DNA from: Chloroflexota bacterium
Lineage (GTDB): Bacteria; Chloroflexota; Dehalococcoidia; Lucifugimonadales; JADFKI01
DNA length: 46,866 nt
Assembly (NCBI GenBank): GCA_027623195.1
Contig: JAQBUT010000024.1
Location: 1-46,866 of the forward strand
Reading direction: 5' to 3'
This document shows, in pieces, positions 3,118 through 31,545 of this stretch. The notes beneath the pieces are model-generated. The model was not told the DNA's origin and did not search any database. It was given only the letters and a program-made list of their open reading frames with translations. The position numbers and the translations under genes are program-made. Numbering within the stretch: the first letter of the stretch is position 1; every line of letters starts with the position of its first letter.

Positions 3118-5223
3118 GTGGGGGTACCAGCGACCAAATTACTCCCGCCTATCTTGGCGGTTATTCTTCTGTTGGCGACCGTGGCCTGCAATGGAGAACA
3201 ACCCGCCGAAGATATCGAATCGACCGCAAACCCCGCTAATTTAGAATCTTCCCGCCAACTCATATTTAACCCTACGGCCACGCCTACGCTTCCGGTGCCC
3301 GCAAAAGTAAGTCCGAATACGTCCCCTCCGCCCGCAGGTGATACAGAACCAACATCGACTCCCCCCGCTACGGACATTACGCCTGAAGCGGAACTTTTCC
3401 AGGATACACCCTGCCCGAATTTCGGCGTACCGGCTGGACCAGATTTCCGATGCGGCTTCTTCTCGGTGGCGGAGAACCGGCAGAAGCCGAAATCCGACCA
3501 CATCCGCCTTGCGGTCATGGTGGCCCGGGGAATCGGAGACGAAGTAAAACCTGATCCAGTAGTGTACCTCTCCGGCGGGCCGGGCGAGAACGCCATTGAA
3601 TCAATGCGATTTCTTTTCAAAAGGCATTTCATCGCCTTCACCGGGAATCGAGACCTGATTGTATTAGACCAACGAGGTACCGGCCTATCTGAACCCGCTT
3701 TAGACTGCCCAGAACTCCTGGAACTGCGCGATGAGACTGCAGGCCAGGACCTTGGAAACGAAGAGTCTGTGGCTATGGCAGCAGAAGCCATTGCCGGCTG
3801 CCGAAAACGCCTGCTGGACGAGGGGGTGGACCTCGGGGCGTACACCAGCGCAGCCAGCGCGGCGGACGTTACTGAGCTTATGAACGACCTGGGCTACGAT
3901 AGGTGGAATCTCTACGGCATATCTTATGGCACCAAGTTGGCCCTCACGATTATGCGAGACTACCCCGAAGGCGTTCGAAGCGCGATACTGGACTCAGCCT
4001 ACCCTCTACAGGAAGACCTTTACGGCAGCGCGCCGGCAAACCTGGATCGTGCGCTCACCGTCCTGTTTGAAGGGTGCAGAGCTTCCGAGGAGTGTGAAGC
4101 CAACTATCCGGCATTGGAAAATGTGCTGATGGGATCAGTTTCAGCCTTAAACGCTGAGCCTGTGTCGCTGCGATTATCAAACCCCCTGACTGGACGGGGC
4201 CTTGAGCCGCTATTCGATGGCAATGGTCTTCTGCACTTCCTTTTCCAATCCCTTTACGACACCGACGTCATTCCCTCTCTGCCCAAAATCATATTCGACA
4301 TTGAAGATGGCCGCATGGGCACCGTCGAACTGATCTTGAGCAGCCGACTAATTGCAGACCAACTTTTCAGCCCGGGAATGCAGCTTTCGGTGCAGTGCGG
4401 CGAAGAGGTGCCATTCACGTCTGTCCAGACAATCAGGTCGGCTTCCGAAAAGTTCCCAAAGTTGGCAGGCATGTTCGAAGGACTTCCCGCTTTAGGCCCC
4501 GCCGTAGTACAAATATGCGACGACTGGGGGGTTCCTGCTGCGGGTCTCAAAGAGAATGAGCAGGTATCATCGGACATCCCTACCTTAGTAATGTCCGGTG
4601 AATTCGACCCGGTGACGCCACCCTCTTGGGGTATGCGCGTACGCGACGACCTGCCCAATAGCACATTTATAGAATTCCCTGGCACTGGTCATGGTGCCAG
4701 CGTCGACAACACATGTGCTCTGGACATCATGATGCAGTTTCTGGGCGACCCCGATGCTTCATTAGACGAGTCTTGCCTGGCGGATTTGACAGGTCCTGCC
4801 TTCGAGGTGCCTGCGTCGGAAATTAGCCTCGTGCCTGTTTTCGACCCCACGTTCGGCAGTTCGGCCATGGCCCCGGAAGGATGGCAAATCATCGCCCCTG
4901 GCATGTACGGTCAGACGGCCCTGGGTGAAACCGCCCTGATAATGCAGTCCGTGCCAGGTCTGGACGAGAACGGGTTTCTCGCTCTGATGGCAGGACAGCT
5001 AAACCTCACGGAGCCTCCACAATCTCGGGGCACTTTCGAGGGAGTAGCTTTCACATGGTCACTATACGGCACTACGGCCCAGGGCCTTACCGTAGATGTG
5101 GCCCTTTCCGAATCCGCAGACGCCGTTTATATTGTGATACTTCAGACTACCCCAGACCAGCGAGACTTCCTGTTACAAGAGGTGTTCGAACCCGTAGTAA
5201 TGGCACTTACTCCCAGTCCCTGA
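3118..5223 (+). CDS. Lipoprotein alpha/beta hydrolase (TAP-like peptidase) with extra C-terminal domain
   Basis: GGAGG RBS before GTG at 3118; lipobox-like LATVA-C; Pro/Thr-rich linker; GGPG oxyanion motif, GISYG nucleophile, GEFDPVTP Asp and GTGHG His. Confidence 0.85.
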   Translation: MGVPATKLLPPILAVILLLATVACNGEQPAEDIESTANPANLESSRQLIFNPTATPTLPVPAKVSPNTSPPPAGDTEPTSTPPATDITPEAELFQDTPCPNFGVPAGPDFRCGFFSVAENRQKPKSDHIRLAVMVARGIGDEVKPDPVVYLSGGPGENAIESMRFLFKRHFIAFTGNRDLIVLDQRGTGLSEPALDCPELLELRDETAGQDLGNEESVAMAAEAIAGCRKRLLDEGVDLGAYTSAASAADVTELMNDLGYDRWNLYGISYGTKLALTIMRDYPEGVRSAILDSAYPLQEDLYGSAPANLDRALTVLFEGCRASEECEANYPALENVLMGSVSALNAEPVSLRLSNPLTGRGLEPLFDGNGLLHFLFQSLYDTDVIPSLPKIIFDIEDGRMGTVELILSSRLIADQLFSPGMQLSVQCGEEVPFTSVQTIRSASEKFPKLAGMFEGLPALGPAVVQICDDWGVPAAGLKENEQVSSDIPTLVMSGEFDPVTPPSWGMRVRDDLPNSTFIEFPGTGHGASVDNTCALDIMMQFLGDPDASLDESCLADLTGPAFEVPASEISLVPVFDPTFGSSAMAPEGWQIIAPGMYGQTALGETALIMQSVPGLDENGFLALMAGQLNLTEPPQSRGTFEGVAFTWSLYGTTAQGLTVDVALSESADAVYIVILQTTPDQRDFLLQEVFEPVVMALTPSP

Positions 5224-5380: not shown

Positions 5381-6403
5381 ATGCCTAAGAGAGTTGCATA
5401 CATAGGCCGTTCGGAACCAGAAATTGCGTTAATAGAACAGGGTCTGGAGGGCCTGGACTACGAGTTGGATATTAACATTGTCGATACACCGGGAGAGATC
5501 ATCGAGGCCATCAAGGGGGCTGATGTAATCCTGAACGGTGGCGTTGAAATGACGAAAGAGATTATCGACGAAATCGATACCGCCCAGGCTATCATCGTCG
5601 GCAGCCACGGATTCAACCACATCGATCATAACGCAGCGACCGCAAAGAACGTGATGGTCGTTAACTGTGCCGGTTTCTGCACAGAGGAGGTATCCAACCA
5701 CGCCATCCTCATGATCATGGCATGCGCGAAGAAGCTTACTATTCTCAACAGCCTGGTCAAGCAAGGGAAATGGGGCGTGGAAACCAGGAACGCCATCATG
5801 CCTATGGCGCCTATCGACGGCCAAACACTTGGACTCGTCGCCTTCGGGAACATAGCCAGAGCCGTCTCTCGCAAGGCGCAGGCACTGGGCATGAACGTGG
5901 TTACATACGACCCTTACTGCCCGCCCTGGATAACCAAAGAGTACAGGACCAGGCAGGTGGCGACGCTACAGGAGCTTGCCACTGACTCTGACTTTATCTC
6001 CGTTCATACGCCTTTGAACGAGGAGACTCGAAAGCTAATCGGAGAGCCGTTCTTCAAGGCCATGAAGCCAACGGCATACTTCGTGAATACCTGCAGAGGG
6101 CCAACTGTCGACGAGGCTGCTTTAATTCGAGCGCTACAAAGTGGCGGAATCGCGGGGGCGGGCCTTGACGTATTCGAAGAGGAGCCTACATCTCCAGACA
6201 ATCCTCTGCTGAAGATGGACAACGTAATCGTTACGCCTCATTCAGCCGGCTCGTCCAACAACTCCAGAGTGCGCTCACCGCTTCGGGTGGGCCAGGAGAC
6301 AGCCCGGCTGTTGAACGGCAAATGGCCGATGTCCGTGGTTAATCCGGAGGTCCGCGCCAATCTTCCGATGCGCCCATTAGCGGAAAACGTCTACGGCGAA
6401 TAA
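5381..6403 (+). CDS. D-isomer-specific 2-hydroxyacid dehydrogenase (SerA/CtBP-like)
   Basis: GLVAFGNIA Rossmann motif, VNTCRG, LDVFEEEP, TPHSAG catalytic His; RBS AGGAGG. Confidence 0.92.
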   Translation: MPKRVAYIGRSEPEIALIEQGLEGLDYELDINIVDTPGEIIEAIKGADVILNGGVEMTKEIIDEIDTAQAIIVGSHGFNHIDHNAATAKNVMVVNCAGFCTEEVSNHAILMIMACAKKLTILNSLVKQGKWGVETRNAIMPMAPIDGQTLGLVAFGNIARAVSRKAQALGMNVVTYDPYCPPWITKEYRTRQVATLQELATDSDFISVHTPLNEETRKLIGEPFFKAMKPTAYFVNTCRGPTVDEAALIRALQSGGIAGAGLDVFEEEPTSPDNPLLKMDNVIVTPHSAGSSNNSRVRSPLRVGQETARLLNGKWPMSVVNPEVRANLPMRPLAENVYGE

Positions 6404-6441
6404 CCTGAAAACTGAGCCAGCACCCTCATCTAGAGGGAAAT

Positions 6442-6466
6442 CAGGGGTGGCCTTTGGCCGCCCCTG
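6442..6466. terminator. GC-rich hairpin between convergent genes (probable terminator)
   Basis: CAGGGGTGGCC-TTT-GGCCGCCCCTG, an 11-bp stem with one G-U pair; weak U tails. Confidence 0.5.
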
Positions 6467-6475
6467 TTGGCTTCA

Positions 6476-6670
6476 TTAGGCGGCGGTATTGCTGCGCAAG
6501 TCTCCAGCAACGGCTGCCAAGACCTCGCTGCTGGACTGCAACCGAATCGTCCTGATCTCAGGCTTAGCAAAGGCAAAATTCAATAGCAACCCACCATCAA
6601 ATGACGGCCTTGCCTGAAAGCTTCCGCCAGATTGGGAGTACAGGACTTTCTTCCCTGACTGAATTGACAT
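6476..6670 (-). CDS. Small hypothetical protein (64 aa)
   Basis: Strong SD GGAGGT 6 nt before the ATG on the minus strand. It fills an otherwise empty intergenic gap and ends just before the hairpin at 6442-6466. Confidence 0.6.
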   Translation of the reverse strand: MSIQSGKKVLYSQSGGSFQARPSFDGGLLLNFAFAKPEIRTIRLQSSSEVLAAVAGDLRSNTAA

Positions 6671-6785
6671 CTAAATACCTCCGACCCTTCGAACCCGTGG
6701 TTATAGATTTCAAGACGCTGTTGACGCAGAGCTTTATCACCGCCCGCGCAAGAATTATTTTTCTGTAATCTCATTCAATCTTGCC

Positions 6786-6831
6786 ACCTGACACCAAGTT
6801 TTACCTGACTTTATCCTCAAAACTACCTGAC
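6786..6831. promoter_or_regulatory. Three direct repeats ACCTGAC in divergent promoter region
   Basis: Exact 7-mers at 6786-6792, 6803-6809 and 6825-6831. Confidence 0.45.
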
Positions 6832-7030
6832 ATATCTGGCCTGCGTCCAAATCGCTGGATGCAAGACGGACCAGCGCCTTATGTACCTCGATTGAGTATT
6901 CCACATCGGTGTGGATGCCTAGCCGAAATCCGTGGTCGTTTGCATGGAATACACAAAGGGATAGCTAAAAATGGTATTAGGGTTCTAACACCGGTTACAG
7001 ATACTTCATTTTCCAAGGAGACGTGCGGTT

Positions 7031-7948
7031 TTGACAACGTTGTCCGCAGACAGGTCCCAGGCCGAAAGACAACTGGTCGTATTTTCTTTGCATAACGAAC
7101 TTTACGGAGTAGACATCAATGTCGTCCGCGAAATCATTCGGATGCAAGATCTCACCAAGATACCTGAGACCCCTTCTTATGTAGAGGGCGTAATAAACCT
7201 GCGAGGATCGGTAACGCCGGTTATCGACCTACGAAAGCGACTGGACCTTTACGTGGGTGAGGCCACCAACGACTCCAGAATCCTAGTTGTGGATGTCAGG
7301 AGCCAAAACATTGGCGTCATCGTGGACGCAGTTACCGAGGTATTGCGGGTAGCGTCGGATGCCATCGAGCCCACATCATCTATCGTCACTGCTGCCGATT
7401 CTGATTACCTTCTGGGGATCGCGAAGCTAGAGGACCGACTGATCATACTGCTGGACCTGGAGAGCGCGCTGTCCGAACATGCGCTTGAACTTGGCCGACA
7501 GGCTTATCGCGAAGAGAAGCGCCTGGAGGCAACGAATCCCATAGAGGCGGTTCTCGAAGAGGCGATCGCTAAAGAAGACCACGAAGAGGACCTCGGACAT
7601 CTTGAGGGTAGGGATACGCTATCCAAATTCTACTATCGCCTGTTGGAGGCCTTTCCTGAGATCAAGCCCTTCTTCGCTGAAATGGACAAAAATGAGGCCG
7701 GTGCAGACCTCATGGGCTTTTTGCATCCTATCCTTGATAACCTTGCCAGGCCCGTGGCCTTGCACAATGCCATGGAGGGCCTGGTGGAATATCACGGGGA
7801 CCTGGGCATTAGGCCAGAGCACCATTCGCTGATCGGCGACACCCTGAAGCAGATGGTGTCCGAATACCTGGATATCGGATGGAACGAGGAGTTTGAGGCC
7901 TCGTGGAACGAGCAGTATAACGCGGTCATCGGGGCTCTCGGAGTTTAG
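7031..7948 (+). CDS. CheW-globin fusion protein
   Basis: N-terminal CheW (LVVFSL..ELYGVDI..VREII...TKIPETPSYVEGVINLRG..TPVIDLR...GVIVDAVTEV...LIILLDL). C-terminal globin (FYYRLLEAFPEIKPFF...YHGDLGIRPEHH..IG..L...W...Y). SD AAGGAG before TTG. Confidence 0.85.
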   Translation: MTTLSADRSQAERQLVVFSLHNELYGVDINVVREIIRMQDLTKIPETPSYVEGVINLRGSVTPVIDLRKRLDLYVGEATNDSRILVVDVRSQNIGVIVDAVTEVLRVASDAIEPTSSIVTAADSDYLLGIAKLEDRLIILLDLESALSEHALELGRQAYREEKRLEATNPIEAVLEEAIAKEDHEEDLGHLEGRDTLSKFYYRLLEAFPEIKPFFAEMDKNEAGADLMGFLHPILDNLARPVALHNAMEGLVEYHGDLGIRPEHHSLIGDTLKQMVSEYLDIGWNEEFEASWNEQYNAVIGALGV

Positions 7949-7971
7949 CTTCTAGAAACTGACATTGATGA

Positions 7972-8013
7972 AATAGGGCCGGCAGCGGAAAAGCTGCCGG
8001 CCCTATTCTTTTT
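7972..8013. terminator. Intrinsic (likely bidirectional) terminator
   Basis: 15-bp perfect stem AATAGGGCCGGCAGC / GCTGCCGGCCCTATT with loop GGAAAA, followed by a T run; lies between convergent genes. Confidence 0.85.
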
Positions 8014-8033
8014 ATTAAGTTTTGTACCCCGCC

Positions 8034-9074
8034 TTAATCTACGGTTAATACTAGTTTGCCAAAGAAATTAACTGCCTCCATCGCCTCGTGCGCCTTGGCA
8101 GCGTCCTGCAACGGAAAGGTCTCGTGTATGACACCCTGGATCGTTCCCCTGCCCGCCAACTCAACTATCTGGCGAAGGTCTTCCTTGCGCCCCATGAACA
8201 CCCCGAACACGGTCTGGTAGCGCAGGAACATTAGGCCCATCTGTAACTCGGCTTTGTAACCGCTGGTAACCCCGCATATACCGTATCGGCCACCCATGGC
8301 CAGCGATGCCGTGGCGGCAGGCCAGAAATCGGAGCCAACGTGGTCTAACACGACGTTGACGCCCTGTCCTCCTGTGATCTCCTTCACCCGCTTCGCGATA
8401 TCTTCTGTGTTGTAGTTGATAACATGGTCGGCGCCCAGTTCCCTGGCCTTCTGAGCCTTTTCCTCGGTGCTGGTTGTCGTTATGACCGTGGAGCCGATCA
8501 CCTTCTTGGCCACCTGAATGGCGGCAGTGCCAACGCCGCTGGACGCCGAAGGTATCAGGACCGTCTCCCAGGGCTTAAGCTGGGCTTTGCGCATCAGAAT
8601 GGTCCAGCAGGGCATGAATACCGTGGGCAGGGATGCCGCCTGCTCAAAAGACAGTGAGTCAGGTATGGGAAACGCGTTTACTGCTGGCACGCTGACGTAC
8701 TCGGCGTAACCGCCATTGACGCTGGCGCCCAACATGCCCGCGCTGGAGCAGAACTCCTCCTCCCCCGCCACGCAGAACCGGCACTGGTTGCAGGTTATCC
8801 TCGGGTTCACAACAACACGGTCCCCCACGGCAACACGAGTTACCTGGCTTCCGATTTCCGCGATTTCCCCCGAAACGTCGCCGCCCAGTACGTGAGGGCC
8901 ATTAAATCGGATACGAGTGCCCCTGGCGCCCGCCCTGGTATACAGGTCCAAGCGGTTGAGGGCACATGCCCTCACCCTTATTTTCACCTCGTTGGGGCCT
9001 ATCTGTGGCTCAGGGAGGTCCCCGTAGGTGAGGACATCGACTCCACCGTGCTCCGTCAGGTAAACGGCTTTCAT
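8034..9074 (-). CDS. Zinc-binding MDR-family alcohol dehydrogenase/oxidoreductase
   Basis: ACALNRLD, HVLGGDVSG, structural Zn motif CNQCRFC...C, ASSGVGTAAIQ, C-terminal GKLVL. Confidence 0.92.
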   Translation of the reverse strand: MKAVYLTEHGGVDVLTYGDLPEPQIGPNEVKIRVRACALNRLDLYTRAGARGTRIRFNGPHVLGGDVSGEIAEIGSQVTRVAVGDRVVVNPRITCNQCRFCVAGEEEFCSSAGMLGASVNGGYAEYVSVPAVNAFPIPDSLSFEQAASLPTVFMPCWTILMRKAQLKPWETVLIPSASSGVGTAAIQVAKKVIGSTVITTTSTEEKAQKARELGADHVINYNTEDIAKRVKEITGGQGVNVVLDHVGSDFWPAATASLAMGGRYGICGVTSGYKAELQMGLMFLRYQTVFGVFMGRKEDLRQIVELAGRGTIQGVIHETFPLQDAAKAHEAMEAVNFFGKLVLTVD

Positions 9075-11918: not shown

Positions 11919-12254
11919 CGATGTAGCTCCGCATCAGTAGGGTCTTTCACTTTCGAATCGAGCCTCCAGAAAAGCCGAAAGAATATATCTCCCACATTTA
12001 AGCAAGTCTGCCGCGGGCCTGCCCCAGAAAATACTCATGAAATGCTCACATTTTCTTCCACCCGCTCACGCCATCCTCATGCGCTATTAGCGATATTAGT
12101 ATGGCCGGAGAGACTTTGGTTCTACAAGCCATTTGGGGGGTAGCCCCTGACGCGGAGGGCAGGCAACATAAGTTCGCGTCGGGACTGGGCCATTGTCTTC
12201 CCCGGCGCTCGTTACGGCTAAGGCACGCGCACGATAAGAGTGGGAGGCGCAATC

Positions 12255-13274
12255 TTGTTTAACAAAATCCTGGTTCCCTTGGATGGAAGCGAAATGACGG
12301 AGGGCATTCTGCCATTCGTTTCTCACCTCGCCCAACAACTGGGTTCCCAAATCACCCTCCTGACGGTGATCAACCCGGAGAGGGTGCAGGTTCCGCCTGT
12401 GGAAGAAGGTAGGCACCACTCCGCAGAGGACTACCGCCTAGGCATGACCCCGACCGACCCCAAGCTGGGCGGCGCTACTAAAACTGCTACGCGTATAGGG
12501 CCATATGTCTCGCAACTCCTTGAGCAGGGAGAAAGAATGGCCGCTGACCGGCTGGGCTCGCTTGCCGAGGGTTTGAAGGATGACAAGACACCTGACCTCA
12601 AGGTCACTACGAAGATACTGCTGGGCAACAGTGCCGAAGAGATAGTCCGGTTCGCTAATAACGAAGGCTTCGGCTTGATAGCCATGGCCACACACGGCAG
12701 GACTACGCTTGGCCGAGGAATATTAGGAAGCGTTTCAGACACTGTATTACGCATGAGCAGGGTCCCGGTAATGGCCCTGCGACCGGACGAGGCGGAGAAG
12801 TATTGGAGCAAGTCGATCAAGGTAGAAAACGTCATCGTGCCGCTGGATGGCACAAAGCTATCCGAAAGTGTTTTGCCCTACGCCGAGGTTATAGGCAGAC
12901 GGCTGGGGGCAACCCTGCTCCTAACCAGGGTCGTGGATATCGGGGCGTTTTCCATGCCAATGGACGGCTACCGATATATCAGCCCAATTCCTCTGGGCGA
13001 TGAGTTGGGCGAAGAGTCCAACGAATACCTTGAAACATTGGCCCAAGGGCTGCGTTCCGACGGTCTGAAAGTGGAGTGGAAAACGACCTGGGGCACGGCC
13101 GCAAGAGCGATAAACAATCTTGCTCATGAAACGCCCAACAACCTGGTGCTTATGGCAACTCACGGCCGGTCTGGTATGGGCAGATGGCTCATGGGAAGTG
13201 TCACGGACAAGGTCGTAAGGTCCTCCGGGGACCCTGTGCTGATAGTGCCACTGCCACAGGCCCATGAAAACTAA
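12255..13274 (+). CDS. Tandem universal stress protein (2x USP)
   Basis: Two copies of ILVPLDGS/T...MATHGR.G..R..GSV...V.R; GGAGG SD before TTG at 12255. Confidence 0.92.
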   Translation: MFNKILVPLDGSEMTEGILPFVSHLAQQLGSQITLLTVINPERVQVPPVEEGRHHSAEDYRLGMTPTDPKLGGATKTATRIGPYVSQLLEQGERMAADRLGSLAEGLKDDKTPDLKVTTKILLGNSAEEIVRFANNEGFGLIAMATHGRTTLGRGILGSVSDTVLRMSRVPVMALRPDEAEKYWSKSIKVENVIVPLDGTKLSESVLPYAEVIGRRLGATLLLTRVVDIGAFSMPMDGYRYISPIPLGDELGEESNEYLETLAQGLRSDGLKVEWKTTWGTAARAINNLAHETPNNLVLMATHGRSGMGRWLMGSVTDKVVRSSGDPVLIVPLPQAHEN

Positions 13275-13305
13275 TCCGGGGTGAACTGGCTAAGAGGAGG
13301 TAACC

Positions 13306-13785
13306 ATGAAAGCTAAAGATATTATGACAACGCCGTTAATCACGATTAGTGATGATTCCACCATTGGCGAGGCGGCGGACGTAATGATTGAGCGAAAACT
13401 CAGTTGTCTGCCAGTGCTAGGCAAGAATGGCACTCTGGTCGGCATAATTACGCATTCCGACTTCGGGCTGCGACGGGAGAGGCTACCTCACGGGGAATCG
13501 CTGTTCACGATGATGGGGCATTGGGCTGAGCCTGCGGCCATGGAACGCGTCACTACAGAGCTGAAATCCAAGCTGGTAAAAGAGGTCGTGCACGAGCCCG
13601 TCACTACCGTAGAAGAGGAGACGCCCATCGAAGACCTGCTCAAGCTTATGGTCGACGAAAGGATTAACCGCCTACCGGTGATGAGGGGAGACAGGATGGT
13701 GGGCATAATCACGCGGCACGATCTGCTCAAGCTCCTCATTAGCCACCCCATGACGTCCAAGCTCTGGACTCCGGCCCGGACTTGA
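13306..13785 (+). CDS. CBS-domain pair protein
   Basis: AKDIMT..., LPV...LVGIIT..D and LPV...MVGIITRHDLL; SD AGGAGG. Confidence 0.92.
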   Translation: MKAKDIMTTPLITISDDSTIGEAADVMIERKLSCLPVLGKNGTLVGIITHSDFGLRRERLPHGESLFTMMGHWAEPAAMERVTTELKSKLVKEVVHEPVTTVEEETPIEDLLKLMVDERINRLPVMRGDRMVGIITRHDLLKLLISHPMTSKLWTPART

Positions 13786-13952: not shown

Positions 13953-14624
13953 TTAAGGGGTGTCTCCTGGCGACATAGAGACAAGCCCTTTTCTCAGGGC
14001 ATACAGGATGGCCTGGGTCCTATCATTCACCTGGAGCTTGGAGAAGATGTTGGCTATGTGATTCTTCACCGTCTTCTCGCTGATGATCAGCTTACCCGCG
14101 ATCTCCCTATTGCTAAGGCCATCGGCGGCCAATTGAAGCACCTGAAGCTCCCGTCCTGTAAGCTCCTGGTAGGGCAGCCCCGTTTGCTGTCGTCGAGGAT
14201 CTCTTCCGAAGTACTCCATCACCTTTTTGGCGATGATTGGGCATAAGATGACTTCACCTCGATGGGCCGCCTCTATGGCCCTTCGCAACTCTTCCGGCTC
14301 TGCCTCTTTGAGCACATATCCCCGGGCGCCTGCCCGCATCCCGGAGAAGACCGACTCATAGTCGTCGAAAATGGTGACCAGAACGACGCCAATGTGGGGA
14401 TTTTCCTGGAGGATCTGACCCGTAGCCTCAATGCCGTTTAATACCGGCATTTTAATGTCCATCAGTATGACGTCTGGGACCAACTCGCGGGCCTGATTCA
14501 CCGCCTCCTCACCGCTGGCCGCCTCTCCCACCACCACAAAGCCCTGCATCTGCTCCAAAAGGTTAGAAATGCCCTTGCGGAAGAGGGTGTGGTCATCCGC
14601 TAAGAGAACTTGGATAGGCTCCAA
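13953..14624 (-). CDS. NarL/LuxR-family response regulator
   Basis: Receiver (LLADDH, ILMDIKMP, GYVLK) plus LuxR HTH (LTGRELQVL..G.SNREIA..L.ISEKTVKNHI.NIFSKL). Confidence 0.95.
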   Translation of the reverse strand: MEPIQVLLADDHTLFRKGISNLLEQMQGFVVVGEAASGEEAVNQARELVPDVILMDIKMPVLNGIEATGQILQENPHIGVVLVTIFDDYESVFSGMRAGARGYVLKEAEPEELRRAIEAAHRGEVILCPIIAKKVMEYFGRDPRRQQTGLPYQELTGRELQVLQLAADGLSNREIAGKLIISEKTVKNHIANIFSKLQVNDRTQAILYALRKGLVSMSPGDTP

Positions 14625-15930
14625 CTTCCACCCCCATTGAAGGAATGTACATGTTTACCTGGCAACCTCTTCCGGGGCTGGTTTGTACCGAGAAGCTCCC
14701 ACCCAGTAGTTCCGCCCTCTCCTGCATGTTCAGGAGACCGTGGCCACTCTCTACGGTTCCATAGACTACTCTATTTTTGTCAAAGCCCCGTCCATCGTCC
14801 TTGATCCTTAGCTCCATGCCTGCATCCATAACCTGTAGGCTTACGCCCACATGGCTCGCCTTCGCGTGTTTCTGGATGTTGTTCAGACACTCTTGGACTA
14901 CTCGAAATACGGTGACCTCGGTGACGGGAGCAAGTGTTAGTTCTTGGGGCGACTCAAACGTCGCCTCTATAGCCGCCTGTTGGCCAAACCGTTCCACCTG
15001 TTGCTTGACGGCGCCTGTAAGGCCCAACTGGTCCAATGCTAGTGGTCTCAGATCGTATATGAGCTCTCGAATACCCTGTATATGCCCTTTCAGGCCTTGG
15101 GCGATCTCTTCCAACTGCCCCTCACATCGCTCTGGATCAGTACGAATGATGTACTGACACGCCCTGATGTTGTTGCCGATCGATGCGAGAGAGGGACCAA
15201 GACCATCGTGTAGCTCTCTGGAAATGCGGCGGCGCTCCTCCTCCTGGGCCAGAGTCACATGGGTGAATCGTTCTTGTATCGCACGGGCTCGCTCCTCAGC
15301 CAGGATTGCCTCTTGGAGCTTGAACAGGTCTCCTGCCGTCTCGTTGATGCTATCGGCCAGCTCTCCCAGCTCATCCTCATTTTCTACATTCACACTCTCC
15401 GAGAAATCCCCCGAGGCCATTCTTTGCATGCCCCGTCTCATCACATGCACCGGGTCGATCACCGACCACGCCATCGCCGCGCCGACGGTCGCAGCGGTAA
15501 GAACGCCGAGCACATCCAGATAGGGTATCAATTTGAAAAAGAAGGTATGATTGGTGTCTTCCAGTTCATTTACAGCTTGATAGACCTCTTGAAACTGGGA
15601 TGGCCCCAGGTCCTGGATTGTGTGAAGCTCGTCGTGCATAAAATTCATCGCCTGCACGTGGATAAAGGTAACCATAAGGAAAAGACCGGCTATTACGGTG
15701 ATTGCGACCTCTTGCTTCCATCGTATGCTGTAGCCAAGGCGGGCGATAAACCGAGAGAGGGGCCTGATGGAGTACCGTAGGACCAGGTAAATGAGCCCCA
15801 GCAGGAGGATTATTGGTATTAGCCCAAAACCAGACAAACTTAGGGTCCCCATCGCCACACCCAGGCCGGAAACGAAAATCAGGTGTTTTAGGCCGATGGA
15901 AATCGAGCGATTCTTGAATACAAACACCAT
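14593..15930 (-). CDS. Membrane sensor histidine kinase, HAMP-HisKA_3-HATPase
   Basis: Multiple TM helices, HAMP (DELGELA), EERRRISRELHDGLG H-box, QECLNNIQKHA, DDGRGF, GHGLLNMQER. Confidence 0.93.
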   Translation of the reverse strand: MVFVFKNRSISIGLKHLIFVSGLGVAMGTLSLSGFGLIPIILLLGLIYLVLRYSIRPLSRFIARLGYSIRWKQEVAITVIAGLFLMVTFIHVQAMNFMHDELHTIQDLGPSQFQEVYQAVNELEDTNHTFFFKLIPYLDVLGVLTAATVGAAMAWSVIDPVHVMRRGMQRMASGDFSESVNVENEDELGELADSINETAGDLFKLQEAILAEERARAIQERFTHVTLAQEEERRRISRELHDGLGPSLASIGNNIRACQYIIRTDPERCEGQLEEIAQGLKGHIQGIRELIYDLRPLALDQLGLTGAVKQQVERFGQQAAIEATFESPQELTLAPVTEVTVFRVVQECLNNIQKHAKASHVGVSLQVMDAGMELRIKDDGRGFDKNRVVYGTVESGHGLLNMQERAELLGGSFSVQTSPGRGCQVNMYIPSMGVEVGAYPSSLSG

Positions 15931-22997: not shown

Positions 22998-23894
22998 CTA
23001 TCCCCGCTTCGGGCCCGCAGGGGCCAGCACATCCCGCATCACCGACATGAAGTTCTGAGTCGGACTGGAAATGGTCTTGCCTCGCAAGGTAACGATGCCA
23101 GCCTGCTCCACAGGAAGCAGATTCGCCAGGCTAATGACACCCACCGTCTTTCGGTCCTCGGGCTCTATAGCCAGCCTTGGCCCTACTGAGATTCCCATTC
23201 CCAGGCCTACGTAGCGCTTGATCATATCCATGCTGTCCAGCTCTACGATGATGTCGTACTCCAGGCCCTTGCGACGGAACTCTTCCTCCAAGATGGCCCG
23301 GGTATACGTTCCCCTGCCCATTAGTATCAAGGGATACCGAGCGATCTGGTCAATGGAGCTTAGAGGTTCGCTAAGCAGGGGATGGTCCAGCGGCGTTATC
23401 AACACGCGCTCGTAAAGGAACAATCCTTGAAAGTCCAGACCCTCGCTCTTTTCGGGATGCTGCACCACACCAAGATCCACCTCACCATCCTGCACCATGT
23501 GAAGCACCTCTTCCCGTGTGCCCGAGCGAATCTTGAGGTGCACCTGCGGAAAGCGCGCCAGGAAGACGCGAACTACGCGAATGAGGGTATGGGGAATGAT
23601 GTCTGGTGTAGAGGCAATCCGGACCGGCCCTCGCTCCTCGGCCACCGTCGTCATTGCGGCCAACGAGTCTATGCCCTCTACCAGGGGCGTGGCTATGGCA
23701 GCCAGTCGATCCCCCGCCAGCGTTAGCTGGATGGGCCGCTTGACCCGGTCGAAAAGCACCATACCCAGCTCTTCTTCCAGTTTCTTTATATGGGTTGTCA
23801 CTGTTGGCTGGCCAAGCCCTAGCTCTTGCGCGGCTTTGGAAATGCTATGAATACGAGCCGCTGTGCAGAAGCTCCGAAGCTCTCTGAGTTCCAT
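22998..23894 (-). CDS. LysR-type transcriptional regulator
   Basis: HTH SISKAAQEL.LGQPTVT.HIKKLEEELG..LFDR...LT.AG; substrate domain IKRYVGLGMGIS. Confidence 0.95.
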   Translation of the reverse strand: MELRELRSFCTAARIHSISKAAQELGLGQPTVTTHIKKLEEELGMVLFDRVKRPIQLTLAGDRLAAIATPLVEGIDSLAAMTTVAEERGPVRIASTPDIIPHTLIRVVRVFLARFPQVHLKIRSGTREEVLHMVQDGEVDLGVVQHPEKSEGLDFQGLFLYERVLITPLDHPLLSEPLSSIDQIARYPLILMGRGTYTRAILEEEFRRKGLEYDIIVELDSMDMIKRYVGLGMGISVGPRLAIEPEDRKTVGVISLANLLPVEQAGIVTLRGKTISSPTQNFMSVMRDVLAPAGPKRG

Positions 23895-23917
23895 GTTAAT
23901 TTACCCAAAAGTGTTAC

Positions 23918-23983
23918 ATCACAAATACTAATACATTCTATCACACGATATATGTTTACATGATGCAAGACCGGATTAATAAT
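23918..23983 (+). promoter_or_regulatory. LTTR box(es) and sigma70-like promoter for the divergent small gene
   Basis: ATCACAAATACTAAT (T-N11-A) at 23918; a second ATCACA 22 nt later; -35 TTTACA (23955) and -10-like AATAAT (23978) spaced by 17 nt. Confidence 0.55.
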
Positions 23984-24061
23984 AAATATGTACCTGAAAT
24001 ACTGAAAGACATATCAGGAATCTTATCGGATAGTTATTAGTAAAAAGAAGAGAGGACGGGC

Positions 24062-24244
24062 ATGTTCCACAGGGTTTTTTCCACACTCAGGCACCTGAAC
24101 TATCGCAATCATCCTAGTTCAGGATTCGATTCCTACCTTGCCAACATCCAGCGTTACAACATGGTCGGCGGTCCTAGGATTGAAGAGGCTCGCAAGGATT
24201 TTAAACACACTGTCCACAACGAGACCACTGGCCTCCTAGGCTAA
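24062..24244 (+). CDS. Small hypothetical protein (60 aa) divergent from LysR
   Basis: Purine-rich SD (AGAGGA) before the ATG; the only ORF between the predicted promoter and terminator. Confidence 0.6.
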   Translation: MFHRVFSTLRHLNYRNHPSSGFDSYLANIQRYNMVGGPRIEEARKDFKHTVHNETTGLLG

Positions 24245-24343
24245 GCAGGTAAGCGAAAACTAAAGAACTGAAGCCGGCTCCACGTGGGCCGGTTTCGGCC
24301 ACAGGAAAATACGTTGGCCTTATGGCCGACGTGAGATGACGAC

Positions 24344-24380
24344 GAGGCACACCTTGCCCACAAAGGTGTGCCTCTTTTTT
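24344..24380 (+). terminator. Intrinsic terminator
   Basis: 12-bp perfect stem GAGGCACACCTT / AAGGTGTGCCTC, loop GCCCACA, followed by T6. Confidence 0.88.
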
Positions 24381-24551
24381 GTGCCTTCAGGTCAGAAACG
24401 GAACCTCAACTCTACCTTGTAGGCTTAATTCCAAGCGTGTTAATGTTAAATTGCCCGGCAATTTTAAAGAGTTATACCGACTAGACGTGGTTCATCCCAT
24501 CCACATGCAAAACGATTTAGTCATAACAATAGTCTAAATATAAGGGGCTTC

Positions 24552-25505
24552 ATGCTTAAATTCTTCCGCAGAAACGAAGAAAAAGATAGTGAGAAGACTG
24601 CGCAGGCGGTACAGAAGTCCCGCCAAACCTGGTTTGGCAAAATGGCAACGCTATTCAGTCGGACGGAACTGGACGCCGCCGCCTGGGACGAGCTAGAGGA
24701 GTTGCTGATCTCCGCAGACGTGGGAGTGGCAACGACGTTCAAGCTGCTGGAAACACTTCGGACCCGCATCGCCGAGGAGCGCCTAACCGACCCCACAGAG
24801 GTCATGGAAGCCCTCAAGGACGAGATGATCTACCTGGTAGACTTCGAGGACGCCGCCGAGACGCTGGAGGCACAGGAAAAGCCGCTGGTTATCCTCATGG
24901 TAGGCGTGAACGGAGTAGGCAAGACCACCAGCATCGCCAAGCTGACCCAGCTATACAAGGAATCCGGCAAAAGCGTCATACTTGGCGCAGCCGACACCTT
25001 CCGGGCAGCCGCCATTGAACAACTTCAGGTCTGGGCGGACCGCCTTGGCGTAGATTTGATAGCCCACCAGTCGGGAGCAGACCCCGGCGCGGTGGCCTTC
25101 GACACCATAAATGCTGCCATGGCCCGAGGCACCGACGTGGTCATAATCGACACAGCGGGCAGGCTTCACACCAAGTTCAACCTCATGGAAGAGCTAAAGA
25201 AGATCCAGCGAATCATGGAGCGTCAGGGCGTCGGCTCCCATCGGGTGCTGGTAACAATCGACGCCACCACGGGGCAGAACGGGCTAATCCAGGCCAAGGC
25301 CTTTACCGAGGCAGTGGAGTGCGAGGGCGTTTTCCTGGCCAAAGTGGACAGTTCCTCTAAAGGCGGTATCGTCTTCGGCATTGCCGACGAGCTTAATCTG
25401 CCCATCCTGTTCATCGGCACCGGCGAGCAGGCCGACGATGTGGCCCCCTTCCAGCCCCACGAATTCGTGGAAGGCCTGTTTTCGGATGTAATCAAAGGGC
25501 AGTAG
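24552..25505 (+). CDS. ftsY: SRP receptor FtsY
   Basis: LEELLISADVG, GVNGVGKTT, AADTFRAAA, DTAGR, DATTGQNG, KGG, FIGTGE. Confidence 0.97.
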   Translation: MLKFFRRNEEKDSEKTAQAVQKSRQTWFGKMATLFSRTELDAAAWDELEELLISADVGVATTFKLLETLRTRIAEERLTDPTEVMEALKDEMIYLVDFEDAAETLEAQEKPLVILMVGVNGVGKTTSIAKLTQLYKESGKSVILGAADTFRAAAIEQLQVWADRLGVDLIAHQSGADPGAVAFDTINAAMARGTDVVIIDTAGRLHTKFNLMEELKKIQRIMERQGVGSHRVLVTIDATTGQNGLIQAKAFTEAVECEGVFLAKVDSSSKGGIVFGIADELNLPILFIGTGEQADDVAPFQPHEFVEGLFSDVIKGQ

Positions 25506-25642
25506 CCCGCCGCAACCCTGATCGACTGACGCTGACGTACGGCGGCGGCTCTAGCACAGCCAGCCTTATCCGCCCCAAATAGCGGACAACGGGAACTAAT
25601 AAAGCATCCCGCTAGGCAGGGGAATACGTATATAATTTACGT

Positions 25643-27952
25643 ATGCTTGACGCGTTGTGGTGGCTTATCGCAGCCGAGGCCATGGGGCTTATTGCCTTTC
25701 CACTGGCCTACTTCCTGCTTCCCCGTCTCGCTGACAGGGGCTATACCCTCAGCAAGCCTTTAGGCATTCTGATTATCGGCTACCTGTCGTGGGTGCTTAG
25801 CGTCCTGCACATTCTCCCCAGTGTAAGAATTTCCCTTATAGGTCTGCTGATTGCCTTTGGCGCACTGTCAGGTTGGTACGCCTGGAACCACCGCCAGGAG
25901 CTAATCCAATTTGCCAAGAAGGAACGTCGCGCCATCATCATCGGCGAGGCCATTTTTCTCGCATTTCTAATAGGCTGGACAATCTACCGCAGCGTTGACC
26001 CTTACATTAACCATACCGAGCAGCCCATGGACTTCGCCCTCCTGAATGCGTCGATTCAGTCCACGTTCGGGCAGCCGGAGGACCCCTGGCTCCGGGGCGA
26101 GGCCATCAGCTACTACTACTTCGGTTACTGGATGATGGGCTCCCTCAGTCAGATCACAGGCCTGGCCTCGGCGGTCTCCTACAATCTGTCGTTAGCCCTG
26201 ATCCCCGCCATGGCTGCCATGGGAGTTTTCGGCCTGGGCTACAACATGATCAAGGCAGAGCGCATCCACTGGGGCTACGCAATTGCAGGAGGCGTCGGAG
26301 GGGCCGTTATGGTGGGGCTGGTGGCCAACCTGGAGGGCGTGCTTGAGTTCATGCGCTTCAATGCCATCGGGTCTCAGGGCTTTTGGGACTGGCTGGCCAT
26401 CGATGGTCTGGCGGGGCCAGCGACGGAGACCGCGACCAGTTGGATGCCCCAGGATTTCTGGTGGTGGTTCCGCGCAACCAGGGTGATAAACACCTTTCAG
26501 GATGGCGTGGGCATCGACTACACCATTCAAGAGTTCCCCATGTTCAGCTATGTGCTGGGGGATATGCATCCGCACGTTATGTCGATACCCTTTGCCGTCA
26601 TGTTCTTGGGCATCTGCCTGAACTTCCTCAGAACGCCCATTGTGGAGCGGGCATGGACGGAGCTACGAAGCTACGCTTTCATTCTCGTCACCGCGCTGGT
26701 CCTGGGCGGTCTGGCCTTCACCAACATGTGGGATTTGCCGACCTACGGGGGGCTGTTCATTGCTGCGGCTGCCTTCAGGATCTTTCGTGAAAAGAACGGA
26801 AGCTTCAAAAGCATGGCAGTATACGCCGGACCTACCGTTCTGGCGGTCTTCATATTAGTTTACGTCTTGTATGCACCTTACTTCCTGAACTTCCAGGCCG
26901 GAGTTAATGGCCTCGGCGCAGTCGAAACCACCACCAGAGGCGTTCATCTTTTCGTCATATGGGGCCTGTTCCTGGTAGCGGTGGTTCCGTTTATGCTGGC
27001 TACCCTCTGGCAAACAACCGTGCGGGAGGACTGGCGCAGGCTGTCGGCCATAGCCCTGAGCATCGCCTTCGTACCCTGGCTGCTTTGGGCGGCCCTCTTT
27101 ACGCAGGGCGAGGGTGGAATGGGCGACCTTATAGGCCGCTTCTTCCACGTTCTTCCCTTCTCAGTGCTTATCACCATAGGCGTATACAACACCATCTGGT
27201 TGGCCCGCGACAACACCCAAACAGGGAAGCTTTTCGCCATGGCGCTGGCCACCACTGGGCTACTGCTTATCATGGGGCCGGAACTACTGTTCATCAGAGA
27301 CTTCTTCGAATCCCGCATGAACAGTATTTTCAAGCTCTACTACCAGGCATGGCTGCTACTAGCCGTGGCCTCCGGCTTCGCAATTTACCAGTGGCAATAC
27401 CTTAGAATATCCTTAATGGGCTGGCGCCGCTCCCTGACAACGCTCTGGGCCGTAGCGTTCATAGCGCTGTTGGCCGGCTCGCTGTATTACTCGCCGGCAG
27501 CGATAGCTTCCAAGAGCGAGCTTAGCCTTCAAAACGCCACTTTGGACGGCCTCAAGTTCACCAGCAGCGCAGAGTACGAGGCCATCGCGTATCTGCGGAC
27601 CAATGCCGAGTCCGGCTCAGGAATCGTGGAGGGCGTTGGCGAGTGGTTCGACTGGGCCCTGATATCACGCAGCACCGGCTTGCCCACCGTGTTCAACTGG
27701 CCGGGTCACCAGATTCAGTGGCGGGGCACCGACGAGAAGTTCGCAGGCCGCGAAGCCGACGTAGCCCGCATCTACGAGAGCCTCGACGCTTCGGAGACGC
27801 AGAACCTTCTGAACCGGTACGACGTAGATTACGTGTACGTGAGCCTCCGCGAGCGTGACAAGTATGGAACGGAAGGCCTTGAGAAGTTTTCTTCTTTTAT
27901 GGACACAGTCTTCCAGCAGGACGACGTAATAATTTACCGAATGAGGGAATAG
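25643..27952 (+). CDS. DUF2298 / Chlor_Arch_YYY polytopic membrane protein (GT-C-like glycosyltransferase candidate)
   Basis: TEQPMD, DPW..G..ISYYYFG (YYY motif), IQEFP.FS..LGDMHPH, TNMWD, RMNSIFKLYYQAW, TGLPTV.NWPGH..QWRG; many TM helices. Confidence 0.88.
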   Translation: MLDALWWLIAAEAMGLIAFPLAYFLLPRLADRGYTLSKPLGILIIGYLSWVLSVLHILPSVRISLIGLLIAFGALSGWYAWNHRQELIQFAKKERRAIIIGEAIFLAFLIGWTIYRSVDPYINHTEQPMDFALLNASIQSTFGQPEDPWLRGEAISYYYFGYWMMGSLSQITGLASAVSYNLSLALIPAMAAMGVFGLGYNMIKAERIHWGYAIAGGVGGAVMVGLVANLEGVLEFMRFNAIGSQGFWDWLAIDGLAGPATETATSWMPQDFWWWFRATRVINTFQDGVGIDYTIQEFPMFSYVLGDMHPHVMSIPFAVMFLGICLNFLRTPIVERAWTELRSYAFILVTALVLGGLAFTNMWDLPTYGGLFIAAAAFRIFREKNGSFKSMAVYAGPTVLAVFILVYVLYAPYFLNFQAGVNGLGAVETTTRGVHLFVIWGLFLVAVVPFMLATLWQTTVREDWRRLSAIALSIAFVPWLLWAALFTQGEGGMGDLIGRFFHVLPFSVLITIGVYNTIWLARDNTQTGKLFAMALATTGLLLIMGPELLFIRDFFESRMNSIFKLYYQAWLLLAVASGFAIYQWQYLRISLMGWRRSLTTLWAVAFIALLAGSLYYSPAAIASKSELSLQNATLDGLKFTSSAEYEAIAYLRTNAESGSGIVEGVGEWFDWALISRSTGLPTVFNWPGHQIQWRGTDEKFAGREADVARIYESLDASETQNLLNRYDVDYVYVSLRERDKYGTEGLEKFSSFMDTVFQQDDVIIYRMRE

Positions 27953-28024
27953 CCAAGGCGAATTTTCATATGCAGCGTTTAATGCAACGCTCATGAAATC
28001 CAGAATCGCATTGGCTTTTATGAA

Positions 28025-30286: not shown

Positions 30287-30414
30287 GCACGATATCCGGC
30301 TCTAAATCACCAGTGAAGTCCAACGGCGATGACTCCCTTAACACCGCCAATGAAGACCGTTTTTACATTTGACGATCCAATGCGGTGTGCTAAGGTTTTC
30401 AACGGGGGTTAAAT

Positions 30415-31545
30415 TTGATTTCTTCGGGGAAGTTCTGGATAGGTATGGGGCTCAGTGCAGCCCTGTTGGCACTGTTCTTCTGGACAGTCGATGTAAGCGA
30501 GATGCTGGACTCTCTGGCTGGGGCCAATTACGTATTCCTTGCGCCGGCGGTGATGGCCTATTTCGTGTCAGTGCTTTTTCGTACTTGGCGATGGCGCGTG
30601 CTGCTGAAACACATGAAGCCCGTCAGTACCCGTAGGCTCTACCCGGTCGTAACCATAGGCTACATGGCCAATAACCTACTGCCTATGCGCTTGGGAGAAA
30701 TCGTGCGCAGCTACTACATTGGAGAGCGCGAAGGAATCAGCAAAACGGCGGCCCTCGTCACCATATTTATAGAACGCATTCTGGATGCGTTGACCTTGCT
30801 GTTTTTCATAGCCGCTATCGCGATATTCGTGCCCCTGTCCGGGCTGGCCGAAGCCTTTGGAGACAAGGCCGGGCTGGCGTGGCCCCTCCTTGTGATAGCG
30901 TTCAGCGCGCCGTTTGTCCTGGCCTTCGGGACGCTACTTCTGTTTGCAGCCTTTCCGACCCAGACCAGATCGCTCTCCATGACTTTCGTCCGCCCCTTTC
31001 CGGAACGCTTCGAAGCGCCCATGCGCAATATGATTGATTATTTCCTGCATGGCCTGATACCCCTGCGCAATCCTAAGACCATCACCCAGCTATTCTTGCT
31101 CTCAATACCCATATGGCTGCTGGAAGCACTTTTGTTCTTTCTGGTCGCATTCTCTTTCGATATCCAATACGCCTTTCTGGGCATTGGACAGATGGCGGTA
31201 GGGATGGTGCTGGTAACGGCCATCGTCAACATAGGCAGCTCAATTCCCGCAGCTCCGGGAGGCATAGGCCTCTTCGAATTGATTACCCGAGAGACCCTGG
31301 TATTGCTGCCGCTGGCATCCGTGGACAGGTCGGTGGCGGCAGGATTCGCTACGTTGGCACACGCAGCCCTGTTATTGCCGATGATACTGCTGGGGCAGGT
31401 GTTTCTGTGGACGGGCCACATCTCCCTTCGAAAGCTGGCGAGGGCCGGGCAGTCAGAGGAGATAGCCCATTCTGAGCCGCCTCCGCCGTCGAGTCCATCC
31501 GGCCTACCGTCGACGCAGGTGGCCGATGATGGGGGAACGCCTTGA
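30415..31545 (+). CDS. Lysylphosphatidylglycerol synthase TM-domain / flippase-like membrane protein (UPF0104)
   Basis: R.WRW..LL, GYMANNLLP.RLGE.VR, ERILD, P.APGGIG.FE. Confidence 0.88.
   Translation: MISSGKFWIGMGLSAALLALFFWTVDVSEMLDSLAGANYVFLAPAVMAYFVSVLFRTWRWRVLLKHMKPVSTRRLYPVVTIGYMANNLLPMRLGEIVRSYYIGEREGISKTAALVTIFIERILDALTLLFFIAAIAIFVPLSGLAEAFGDKAGLAWPLLVIAFSAPFVLAFGTLLLFAAFPTQTRSLSMTFVRPFPERFEAPMRNMIDYFLHGLIPLRNPKTITQLFLLSIPIWLLEALLFFLVAFSFDIQYAFLGIGQMAVGMVLVTAIVNIGSSIPAAPGGIGLFELITRETLVLLPLASVDRSVAAGFATLAHAALLLPMILLGQVFLWTGHISLRKLARAGQSEEIAHSEPPPPSSPSGLPSTQVADDGGTP

Follow-up and report, generated by a model that had tools for sequence, protein, structure and literature searches.

In the textbook chemosensory array all sensory input arrives through receptors and CheW serves as a passive coupler; to our knowledge, the one known regulated coupler is CheV, which is controlled by phosphorylation from inside the pathway. 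The locus described here raises the question of whether a coupling protein could carry a sensor of its own. It is situated in a 46,866-nt stretch of DNA from a Chloroflexota bacterium of the class Dehalococcoidia (hereafter the window; contig JAQBUT010000024.1, C17 in our numbering, of assembly GCA_027623195.1, which comprises 3.0 Mb in 65 contigs and is 87% complete), where one intact open reading frame (ORF; 7031-7948, plus strand) encodes a protein of 305 amino acids (aa) composed of a CheW domain, an acidic linker and a globin of the flavohaemoglobin family. We reason, at a rough probability of 0.55, that this CheW-globin protein would be a second, sensory coupling protein of the single chemosensory pathway of its genome, and that, tethered to the array, it would sense a gas or the redox state by means of haem.

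Domains and haem pocket of the CheW-globin protein

The CheW part (residues 14-149; 7070-7477, plus strand) was matched by Pfam family PF01584 with an E-value of 5.7e-38 and 130.1 bits (cut-off 23.5) over profile positions 1-136 of 138, within a few codons of the complete CheW domain that the preliminary description of the window, made from the nucleotide sequence, had placed at about 7064-7475. An NCBIfam scan of the 305-aa protein returned CheW together with the N-terminal part of a flavohaemoprotein (E 1.6e-8), and among solved structures the CheW part matched, by sequence, TtCheW (2qdl, E 2.5e-34). In the AlphaFold2 (AF2) model, residues 10-150 have a predicted local distance difference test score (pLDDT) of 85-97 and form the two-subdomain beta-barrel fold of CheW, and CheW structures rank first when the model is compared with the Protein Data Bank (PDB) by Foldseek (2qdl_B with a target-normalised TM-score, TMt, of 0.84; the E. 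coli core-signalling-unit CheW 8c5v_E with a TMt of 0.87). This model (mean pLDDT 80.6) rests on an alignment of 104 rows (22 fusions, 35 pieces of stand-alone Chloroflexota CheWs and 47 single-domain globins), in which the placement of the rows was checked, and it replaced a first one made from 19 fusion sequences only (mean pLDDT 48.7, CheW below 50); eight locus pieces were excluded from the alignment, L037 for an in-frame stop and L044, L050, L055, L072, L074, L076 and L078 as a precaution.

The CheW-globin protein retains 43 of the 45 positions that are at least 90% conserved in the 35 stand-alone Chloroflexota CheWs, the two departures being Phe71Leu and Gly91Ser. Six positions set the main fusion clade apart from stand-alone CheWs (e.g. 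position 71, Leu in 16/18 vs Phe in 34/35), and the domain is 63% identical to the plain CheW of its own genome. Ratios of nonsynonymous to synonymous substitution rates (dN/dS) among three genomic orthologues, computed with dS near saturation in some pairs, were 0.04-0.10 for CheW, 0.11-0.16 for the globin, 0.12-0.29 for the linker and 0.09-0.13 for the whole gene; both domains are under purifying selection, the linker less strongly so. By every available test (conserved positions, fold, selection) the CheW domain is intact.

The globin part (residues 196-305; 7616-7945, plus strand) was matched by Pfam Globin (PF00042) at residues 199-302 (7625-7936; E 1e-10; 42.6 bits, the cut-off being 22; positions 2-116 of the 117 in the profile), in keeping with the flavohaemoglobin-type globin proposed earlier at about 7610-7945, and both the profile and the fold bear out that assignment. 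Neither Protoglobin (PF11563) nor Bac_globin (truncated globin) matched the 305-aa protein at E <= 10 in Pfam, so membership of the Protoglobin/HemAT family was rejected, and the same scan found no response-regulator receiver domain (Response_reg). By sequence, the closest solved structures are HGbRL (3wfw, E 9e-10), the Ralstonia flavohaemoglobin FHP (9.1e-9) and HGbI (about 4e-7). Six helices are predicted at pLDDT 77-89, namely B (196-207), C (209-215), E (220-236), F (241-257), G (262-279) and H (286-304), and Foldseek recovered HGbI (3s1i; E 1.2e-4, TMt 0.64), followed by thermoglobin and flavohaemoglobin. The alignment with the 131-residue HGbI covers 111 columns; of the helices of a complete 3-on-3 fold (A, B, E, F, G and H), only A has no confident counterpart in the model.

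We placed the haem-pocket residues by alignment to FHP, HGbRL and HGbI and by family alignments, with the codons checked. Phe200 and Tyr201 correspond to B9 and B10 (the codon of the distal Tyr201 at 7631-7633), Phe215 to CD1, Ala223 to E7 (7697-7699), Leu227 to E11 and His255, the predicted proximal haem ligand, to F8 (7793-7795), all on the plus strand, while Trp292 and Tyr296 sit in helix H. These are the residues behind the Tyr B10, Phe CD1, His F8 and helix-H Trp/Tyr that the preliminary description had read from the translation, and its suspicion of an Ala at E7 proved right. His F8 is present in all 22 fusions and in 46/47 single-domain relatives, Tyr B10 in 21/22 and 44/47, respectively, Phe CD1 in 21/22 fusions and Leu E11 in 22/22. 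Position E7 is Gln in 15 fusions and in 44/47 single-domain relatives; the seven fusions with Ala are exactly the subclade of the window protein, in which the distal Tyr B10/Gln E7 pair is consequently reduced to Tyr201. This subclade also has Asp (Asp226 in the window protein) instead of Lys at E10, and acidic residues occupy the place of the helix A that is clear in relatives (of the LNIELLEQSFAKL type), as had been surmised earlier.

The globin most likely binds haem b, since the features required of a haem globin are retained and the domain is under selection. Its remodelled distal site could mean a different ligand, and would be compatible with O2 sensing because HemAT-type sensors also depend on Tyr B10 without a polar E7. 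The genome holds a second globin gene as well (locus L010, contig C10, about 3235-3672), a single-domain one that a frameshift near the E helix splits in two: one frame holds the N-terminal half (VEPQQITLVQESWDKV...EEQGKS) and another the remainder with His F8 (Pfam Globin positions 43-117, E 9.2e-11), which points to either an assembly error or a pseudogene.

Between the two domains, the linker (residues 151-195; 7481-7615, plus strand), which includes a degenerate remnant of helix A, holds 14 acidic (D/E) and six basic (K/R) residues out of 45, which justifies its earlier characterisation as acidic. Residues 151-190 are modelled at pLDDT below 55, and the spacer between CheW and globin helix B ranges from 33 to 135 residues across 22 family members.

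The gene begins with TTG and ends with TAG. A Shine-Dalgarno-like AAGGAG can be read at 7015-7020 (plus strand), 10 nt 5' of the start codon, and the N-termini of homologues (MTT...) coincide with this start in the family alignment. Downstream, a hairpin at 7972-8007 (a 15-pair stem with 10 GC pairs, a loop of 6 and a following T run) corresponds to the terminator assigned to the gene in the preliminary description and separates the convergent CheW-globin and Zn-dependent dehydrogenase (Zn-ADH) genes; a terminator scan of the region found seven such sites against 2.0 expected. In two of four runs compared from a second study the whole 1151-base stretch was recovered in one contig, with three substitutions each and no indel, and hence the frame is not an assembly chimera or artefact; in the other two runs the contigs break at 7933. 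A G>A change at 7206 in one of the four (estuary run X6), placing Glu at the family-invariant Gly59 of the CheW NLRG motif, is carried by a single contig at a depth of 16. The 627 bp 5' of the gene (6404-7030) have no convincing ORF and one promoter-like site (6788-6817). An Rfam search of 6300-8200 gave no match above the gathering score, and the weak Thr_leader matches seen there were set aside as the terminator hairpin.

Family, distribution and the Che system of the genome

The architecture is not confined to the window. A search of 5.8 billion proteins yielded about 25 clusters whose annotation includes the two Pfam domains, six of them 73-79% identical to the window protein over its full length and the others 40-50%, and the sole name attached to these clusters is 'chemotaxis protein CheW'. 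A quick tree of the CheW domain unites 18/22 fusions in a single clade (SH-aLRT 95) that lies within stand-alone CheWs from Chloroflexota and Dehalococcoidia metagenome-assembled genomes (MAGs), and a quick tree of the globin unites 19/22 (SH-aLRT 95). The remaining fusions (P0179, P0211 and P0194) and the multi-globin proteins P0143 and P0125 fall elsewhere, near globins fused to MCP-signalling domains, with weak support; as placed in these trees, they do not force more than one origin of the fusion. P0143 consists of CheW and two globins, its 90%-identity cluster including members named from Gammaproteobacteria MAGs, and P0125 of CheW and three globins. The nearest cluster in the ESM Atlas (55 members, Pseudomonadota, score 0.85) combines CheW with a truncated haemoglobin (PF01152) and is taken as a lead only.

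With residues 175-305 as the query, an exhaustive HMMER search gave 696 cluster representatives at E <= 0.001. From the best 150 globin relatives, 83 chosen as multi-domain or longer (up to 1000 residues) were scanned with Pfam, and 16 of these carry signalling domains: eight MCPsignal, five CheW (three with one globin, one with two and one with three), two PAS alone and one PilZ. Other partners were pentapeptide repeats (6), LRR (3) and, once each, CMD, cytochrome b5, dCache and the methane-monooxygenase gamma chain; all others scanned are single or tandem globins. Judging from these partners, this branch of the F family of globins is frequently wired to signalling domains. Among the relatives there are also giants with tandem globins (P0121, P0127 and P0134, with 14 matched stretches in 2461 aa, seven in 2352 aa and seven in 1967 aa, respectively) and a 330-aa protein (P0252) in which a methane-monooxygenase hydroxylase gamma-chain domain (PF02964, E 1.3e-26) is fused to a related globin.

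Within 41 genomes of the same genus, family or order, the CheW family model found a match in four only, and all four carry the fusion: G000, G001 and G002 from the genus of the window and G004 from another genus. The other 37, among which are 20 genomes of the sister genus (mostly near-complete, many closed) and members of 16 other families, gave no CheW-like domain. CheA-length frames were present in G000, G002 and G004, a plain CheW in G000, G001 and G004, and neither FlhA nor FliM/N was found in the fusion-bearing G001, G002 and G004 (86-90% complete). This patchiness suggests that the whole Che system, together with the fusion, was gained or kept only in two genera of the order. In an even, class-wide sample of 401 genomes, 76 had a CheW match and in two of them it extends over both domains, namely the genome of the window and G360, where one TAG, which may be a genuine break or an error, interrupts the frame and the globin (Pfam E 2.1e-8) falls in the downstream ORF. 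The interrupted fusion of G360 (locus L092, contig C98, 1308-3103) lies divergently beside a second cheW, the only such che adjacency seen. A scan of species-representative genomes returned 311 CheW relatives, and of the 79 loci retained five gave matches to both domains, each bearing the label of a Chloroflexota or Dehalococcoidia MAG; in one of the five (L079) only a 214-aa CheW ORF is open.

No che gene accompanies the fusion in the window, where it had been described as an orphan. According to whole-genome family searches, the only other CheW-like domains and the only receptor (methyl-accepting chemotaxis protein, MCP) are encoded on contig C16, which also holds a che operon (23390-31325, locus L008) in the order CheA-CheC-CheD-CheY-CheB-CheR, an HD-GYP-type protein, a 215-aa protein and CheX. 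Its CheA (711 aa, 29190-31325) comprises P1, P2, dimerisation, ATPase and P5 domains. The operon itself contains no cheW, hence the orphan CheWs are its expected partners; the plain one (158 aa, 4585-5061 of C16) adjoins a LuxR-type response regulator. The single MCP found (64681-66708 of C16) consists of 4HB, HAMP and signalling domains, with no PAS or haem input. The HD-GYP-type protein has its best NCBIfam match in the phosphodiesterase part of the NosR family (E 7.3e-30). The 215-aa protein has no family match; its N-terminus (VLSQEEIDAMLAG) presumably resembles the CheY-binding peptide of FliM/FliY.

The preliminary description had proposed looking for CheA and MCP partners and for che and flagellar genes. 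The absence of a CheA/MCP partner would have refuted its reading, but the genome does encode CheA, CheW, CheY, CheB, CheR and one MCP. Flagellin, FlhA, FliG and FliM/N were not found in this 87% complete genome. Since flagellar genes were found neither here nor in the three fusion-bearing relatives, the output of the pathway is probably not flagellar aerotaxis, and it may be cyclic di-GMP (c-di-GMP) or something else. One T2SSE-like match in the genome, a 293-aa ORF, is the only hint of a pilus-type machinery, and this single ORF is too little to claim a pilus system.

Metabolic genes surround the fusion in the window. It adjoins a D-2-hydroxyacid dehydrogenase gene, and the other strand carries the genes of the Zn-dependent dehydrogenase, a PIG-L deacetylase and a luciferase-like oxidoreductase, an order retained at the related loci L011 and L012; the more distant fusions of L013 and L057 adjoin a short-chain dehydrogenase and enoyl-CoA hydratases, respectively. 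A hybrid histidine kinase of 541 aa (REC-HisKA-HATPase-REC) is encoded about 4 kb upstream, in a cluster with two receiver-domain proteins (79-2794), and is syntenic in L011 and not in L012; given this lack of synteny in L012 and the two metabolic genes in between, these two-component genes were set aside as partners. Further along the window there are a gene for a universal stress protein with two Usp domains in tandem, after which comes the gene of a CBS-pair protein (12240-13785), and, on the other strand, a pair consisting of a HAMP histidine kinase and a LuxR response regulator (13953-15930).

A proposed sensory coupler and the alternatives

Given the intact CheW domain, the che operon without cheW and the restriction of the fusion to genomes in which a Che system exists, the protein most likely enters the CheA/MCP array. 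Its N-terminal domain would take CheW positions in the receptor-kinase array, in contact with CheA P5 and the receptor tips, and the flexible acidic tether would hold the haem domain, with b-type haem bound via His255, at the baseplate. Binding of a diatomic gas, with O2 as the likeliest ligand and NO or CO as possible ones, or a change in haem redox state would then rearrange the CE loop and the E helix, as in HGbRL and FHP, where both elements undergo large shifts linked to the ligand (PMC4476040), which makes a plausible switch for the CheW-globin too. Such a rearrangement would alter the contacts of the globin within the array (with its own CheW domain, with CheA or with another globin) and bias the kinase output of CheA. 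Because the tether is long, variable and disordered, we think that the globin would act in trans, on a nearby array component or another globin, rather than through its own CheW domain. The preliminary description had suggested that a CheW sensing O2, NO or redox state itself could modulate CheA independently of receptors; the tether argues for a sensor acting within the array and not for rigid allostery. Observed here are the two domains and their folds, the conserved haem-pocket and CheW residues, purifying selection and the co-occurrence with a Che system; that the protein binds haem, joins the array, responds to a given ligand and acts on CheA is what we infer, and we consider its reading as a sensor plausible.

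Several observations weigh against a sensory coupler of this kind. The spacer of 33-135 residues, modelled at low confidence, makes direct allostery through CheW unlikely. Gln E7, Lys E10 and the helix-A consensus have disappeared from the subclade of the window, which is set off by long internal branches in the globin tree (0.45 and 0.58), so that its ligand chemistry may differ from that of relatives or be weakened. No che gene stands beside the fusion in any of the five readable contexts (the window, L011, L012, L013 and L057), the fusion is rare (2/401 genomes class-wide, against 76 with a CheW match), and flagellin, FlhA, FliG and FliM/N were not found in the genome.

Alternatively, the globin might be an oligomerising or scaffold module that pairs with another globin, makes CheW bivalent and cross-links or stabilises arrays, in the manner supposed for proteins with two or three CheW domains, with a secondary or absent role for gas. 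HGbRL, the nearest solved relative, is an obligate site-swapped dimer (PMC4476040), tandem repeats are common among the relatives of the globin (from double- and triple-globin CheWs to a protein with 14 matched stretches), a flexible tether fits bridging, and multi-CheW proteins have been proposed for special arrays (bioRxiv 10.1101/2022.05.07.491037). We nevertheless regard a scaffold as unlikely, as a mere dimeriser would not need the strict conservation of the proximal His and distal Tyr, and the Pro241 that the window protein shares at the E-F corner with FHP, and which HGbRL lacks, would favour a normal, unswapped fold. An even smaller share of belief goes to a tethered globin with no sensory role, engaged in local O2 scavenging or buffering or in NO detoxification, for which CheW would provide localisation only. 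F-family enzymes and carriers (flavohaemoglobin, Vitreoscilla and Campylobacter globins) do figure among the fold and sequence matches, and the tandem multi-globin relatives look like storage proteins; still, there is no reductase partner domain or neighbouring reductase gene, a detoxifying globin at a signalling array has no evident benefit, the relatives are repeatedly fused to signalling domains (16/83 scanned; MCPsignal, CheW, PAS, PilZ), and the loss of Gln E7 in the subclade removes a residue typical of members that handle O2 or NO.

It is about equally improbable that the CheW-like domain works outside the CheA/MCP array, as a generic adaptor or as a competitor withdrawing CheA or receptors. 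The position of the gene among dehydrogenase genes and not beside che genes would suit such a role, as would the six systematic differences from stand-alone CheWs (Phe71 to Leu among them), yet 43/45 conserved CheW positions are retained, the close relatives have the fusion in 4/4 genomes with a Che system and in 0/37 without, and an operon devoid of cheW leaves the orphan CheWs as its expected partners. A decaying or artefactual fusion without function, to which the degenerate helix A and the changed E7 and E10 might be attributed, is highly improbable in view of an intact frame with ribosome-binding site and terminator, the whole-gene dN/dS of 0.09-0.13, the recovery of the same main fusion clade by both domain trees (18/22 and 19/22) and the presence of the same fused ORF, with no indel, in the second-study contigs; it is the only alternative that the data clearly disfavour.

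If the protein is a sensory coupler, one may go further, albeit tentatively, and suppose that in these non-flagellate estuarine Dehalococcoidia gas is sensed at the baseplate and that the haem globin on CheW might be the only O2, NO or redox input of the pathway, given that the only receptor found is one without redox input. The same tentative extension would hold sensory CheWs to be recurrent, because CheW is fused to globins of different branches (the Chloroflexota clade, the double- and triple-globin CheWs and possibly a truncated haemoglobin). Were this true, the 'sensory CheW' would be a recurrent, undescribed route of signals into chemosensory arrays.

Relation to known couplers and globin-based sensors

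Full-text searches found no literature on a CheW-globin protein, in line with the earlier impression that the architecture had not been characterised, and public databases hold it uncommented, as 'chemotaxis protein CheW' or 'globin domain-containing protein'. CheW-like domains are rarely fused to PAS and other domains, according to two preprints on CheW architectures which excluded those with fewer than 40 sequences (bioRxiv 10.1101/2022.05.07.491035 and 10.1101/2022.05.07.491037). The idea of a sensory CheW has already been raised for such rare, CheW-PAS-type architectures. Neither preprint uses the word globin in its main text, and their supplements may list CheW+Globin among 111 Pfam architectures. 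A globin review (PMC7475203) does not mention CheW (its only 'Chew' is an author name), and a 2026 review of aerotaxis (PMC13401364), in the passages that name CheW, presents CheW as a plain coupler only.

If true, a CheW with its own haem sensor would give signals a different way into the pathway. The protein would also join the few globins of the flavohaemoglobin family that seem to work as sensors and not as enzymes or carriers, and would provide a first hint of the stimulus to which the Che systems of marine and estuarine Dehalococcoidia, sporadic and non-flagellar as they are, respond. It would be a simple test object too, being soluble, small and made of two domains, in a genome with one CheA and one MCP, and suited to asking how events at the CheW position alter kinase activity.

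The nearest analogue among couplers is CheV, a CheW-like domain joined to a receiver domain (bioRxiv 10.1101/2022.05.07.491035). Both proteins have an N-terminal CheW-like domain, a linker and a C-terminal regulatory domain, so that the coupler, and not the receptor, carries the regulatory input; the window protein differs in having a haem-type globin in place of the phospho-accepting receiver, and its input would be gas or redox state rather than phosphorylation by CheA.

On the globin side, HGbRL of Methylacidiphilum infernorum (PDB 3wfw/3wfx) is the best solved relative by sequence, an F-family globin fused to a Roadblock/LC7 domain, and has been proposed to act as a sensor; its haem is coordinated by Lys E10 and His (Lys-His hexacoordination; PMC4476040). 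There the globin is N-terminal, whereas the window protein has CheW as partner, Asp226 at E10, Ala at E7 and Pro at the E-F corner; and while HGbRL has a fused E-F helix, the model of the window protein has separate E (220-236) and F (241-257) helices with an invariant Pro241 between them. The single-domain F-family globins (HGbI, 3s1i/3ubc; thermoglobin, 7dih; Vitreoscilla haemoglobin) and FHP (1cqx/3ozu) are the best fold matches for residues 196-304 and share with the window globin the Phe B9-Tyr B10 pair, Phe CD1, Leu E11 and His F8. Unlike them, the window globin has no helix-A consensus, no reductase domain and an Ala at E7, and is fused to CheW. F-family globins such as flavohaemoglobin and those of Vitreoscilla and Campylobacter are enzymes or carriers.

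In HemAT-type proteins, a protoglobin or sensor-family globin lies N-terminal to an MCP signalling domain, and the input passes via the receptor. The window protein resembles these globin-coupled sensors (S family) in bringing a haem globin into a chemotaxis-type pathway and in keeping Tyr B10, and departs from them in that its globin belongs to PF00042, is C-terminal and sits on a CheW adaptor, the N-terminal CheW being the sole other domain, with no transmitter. The CheW-globin protein would thus join two known kinds, the regulated coupling proteins exemplified by CheV and the globin-based sensors.

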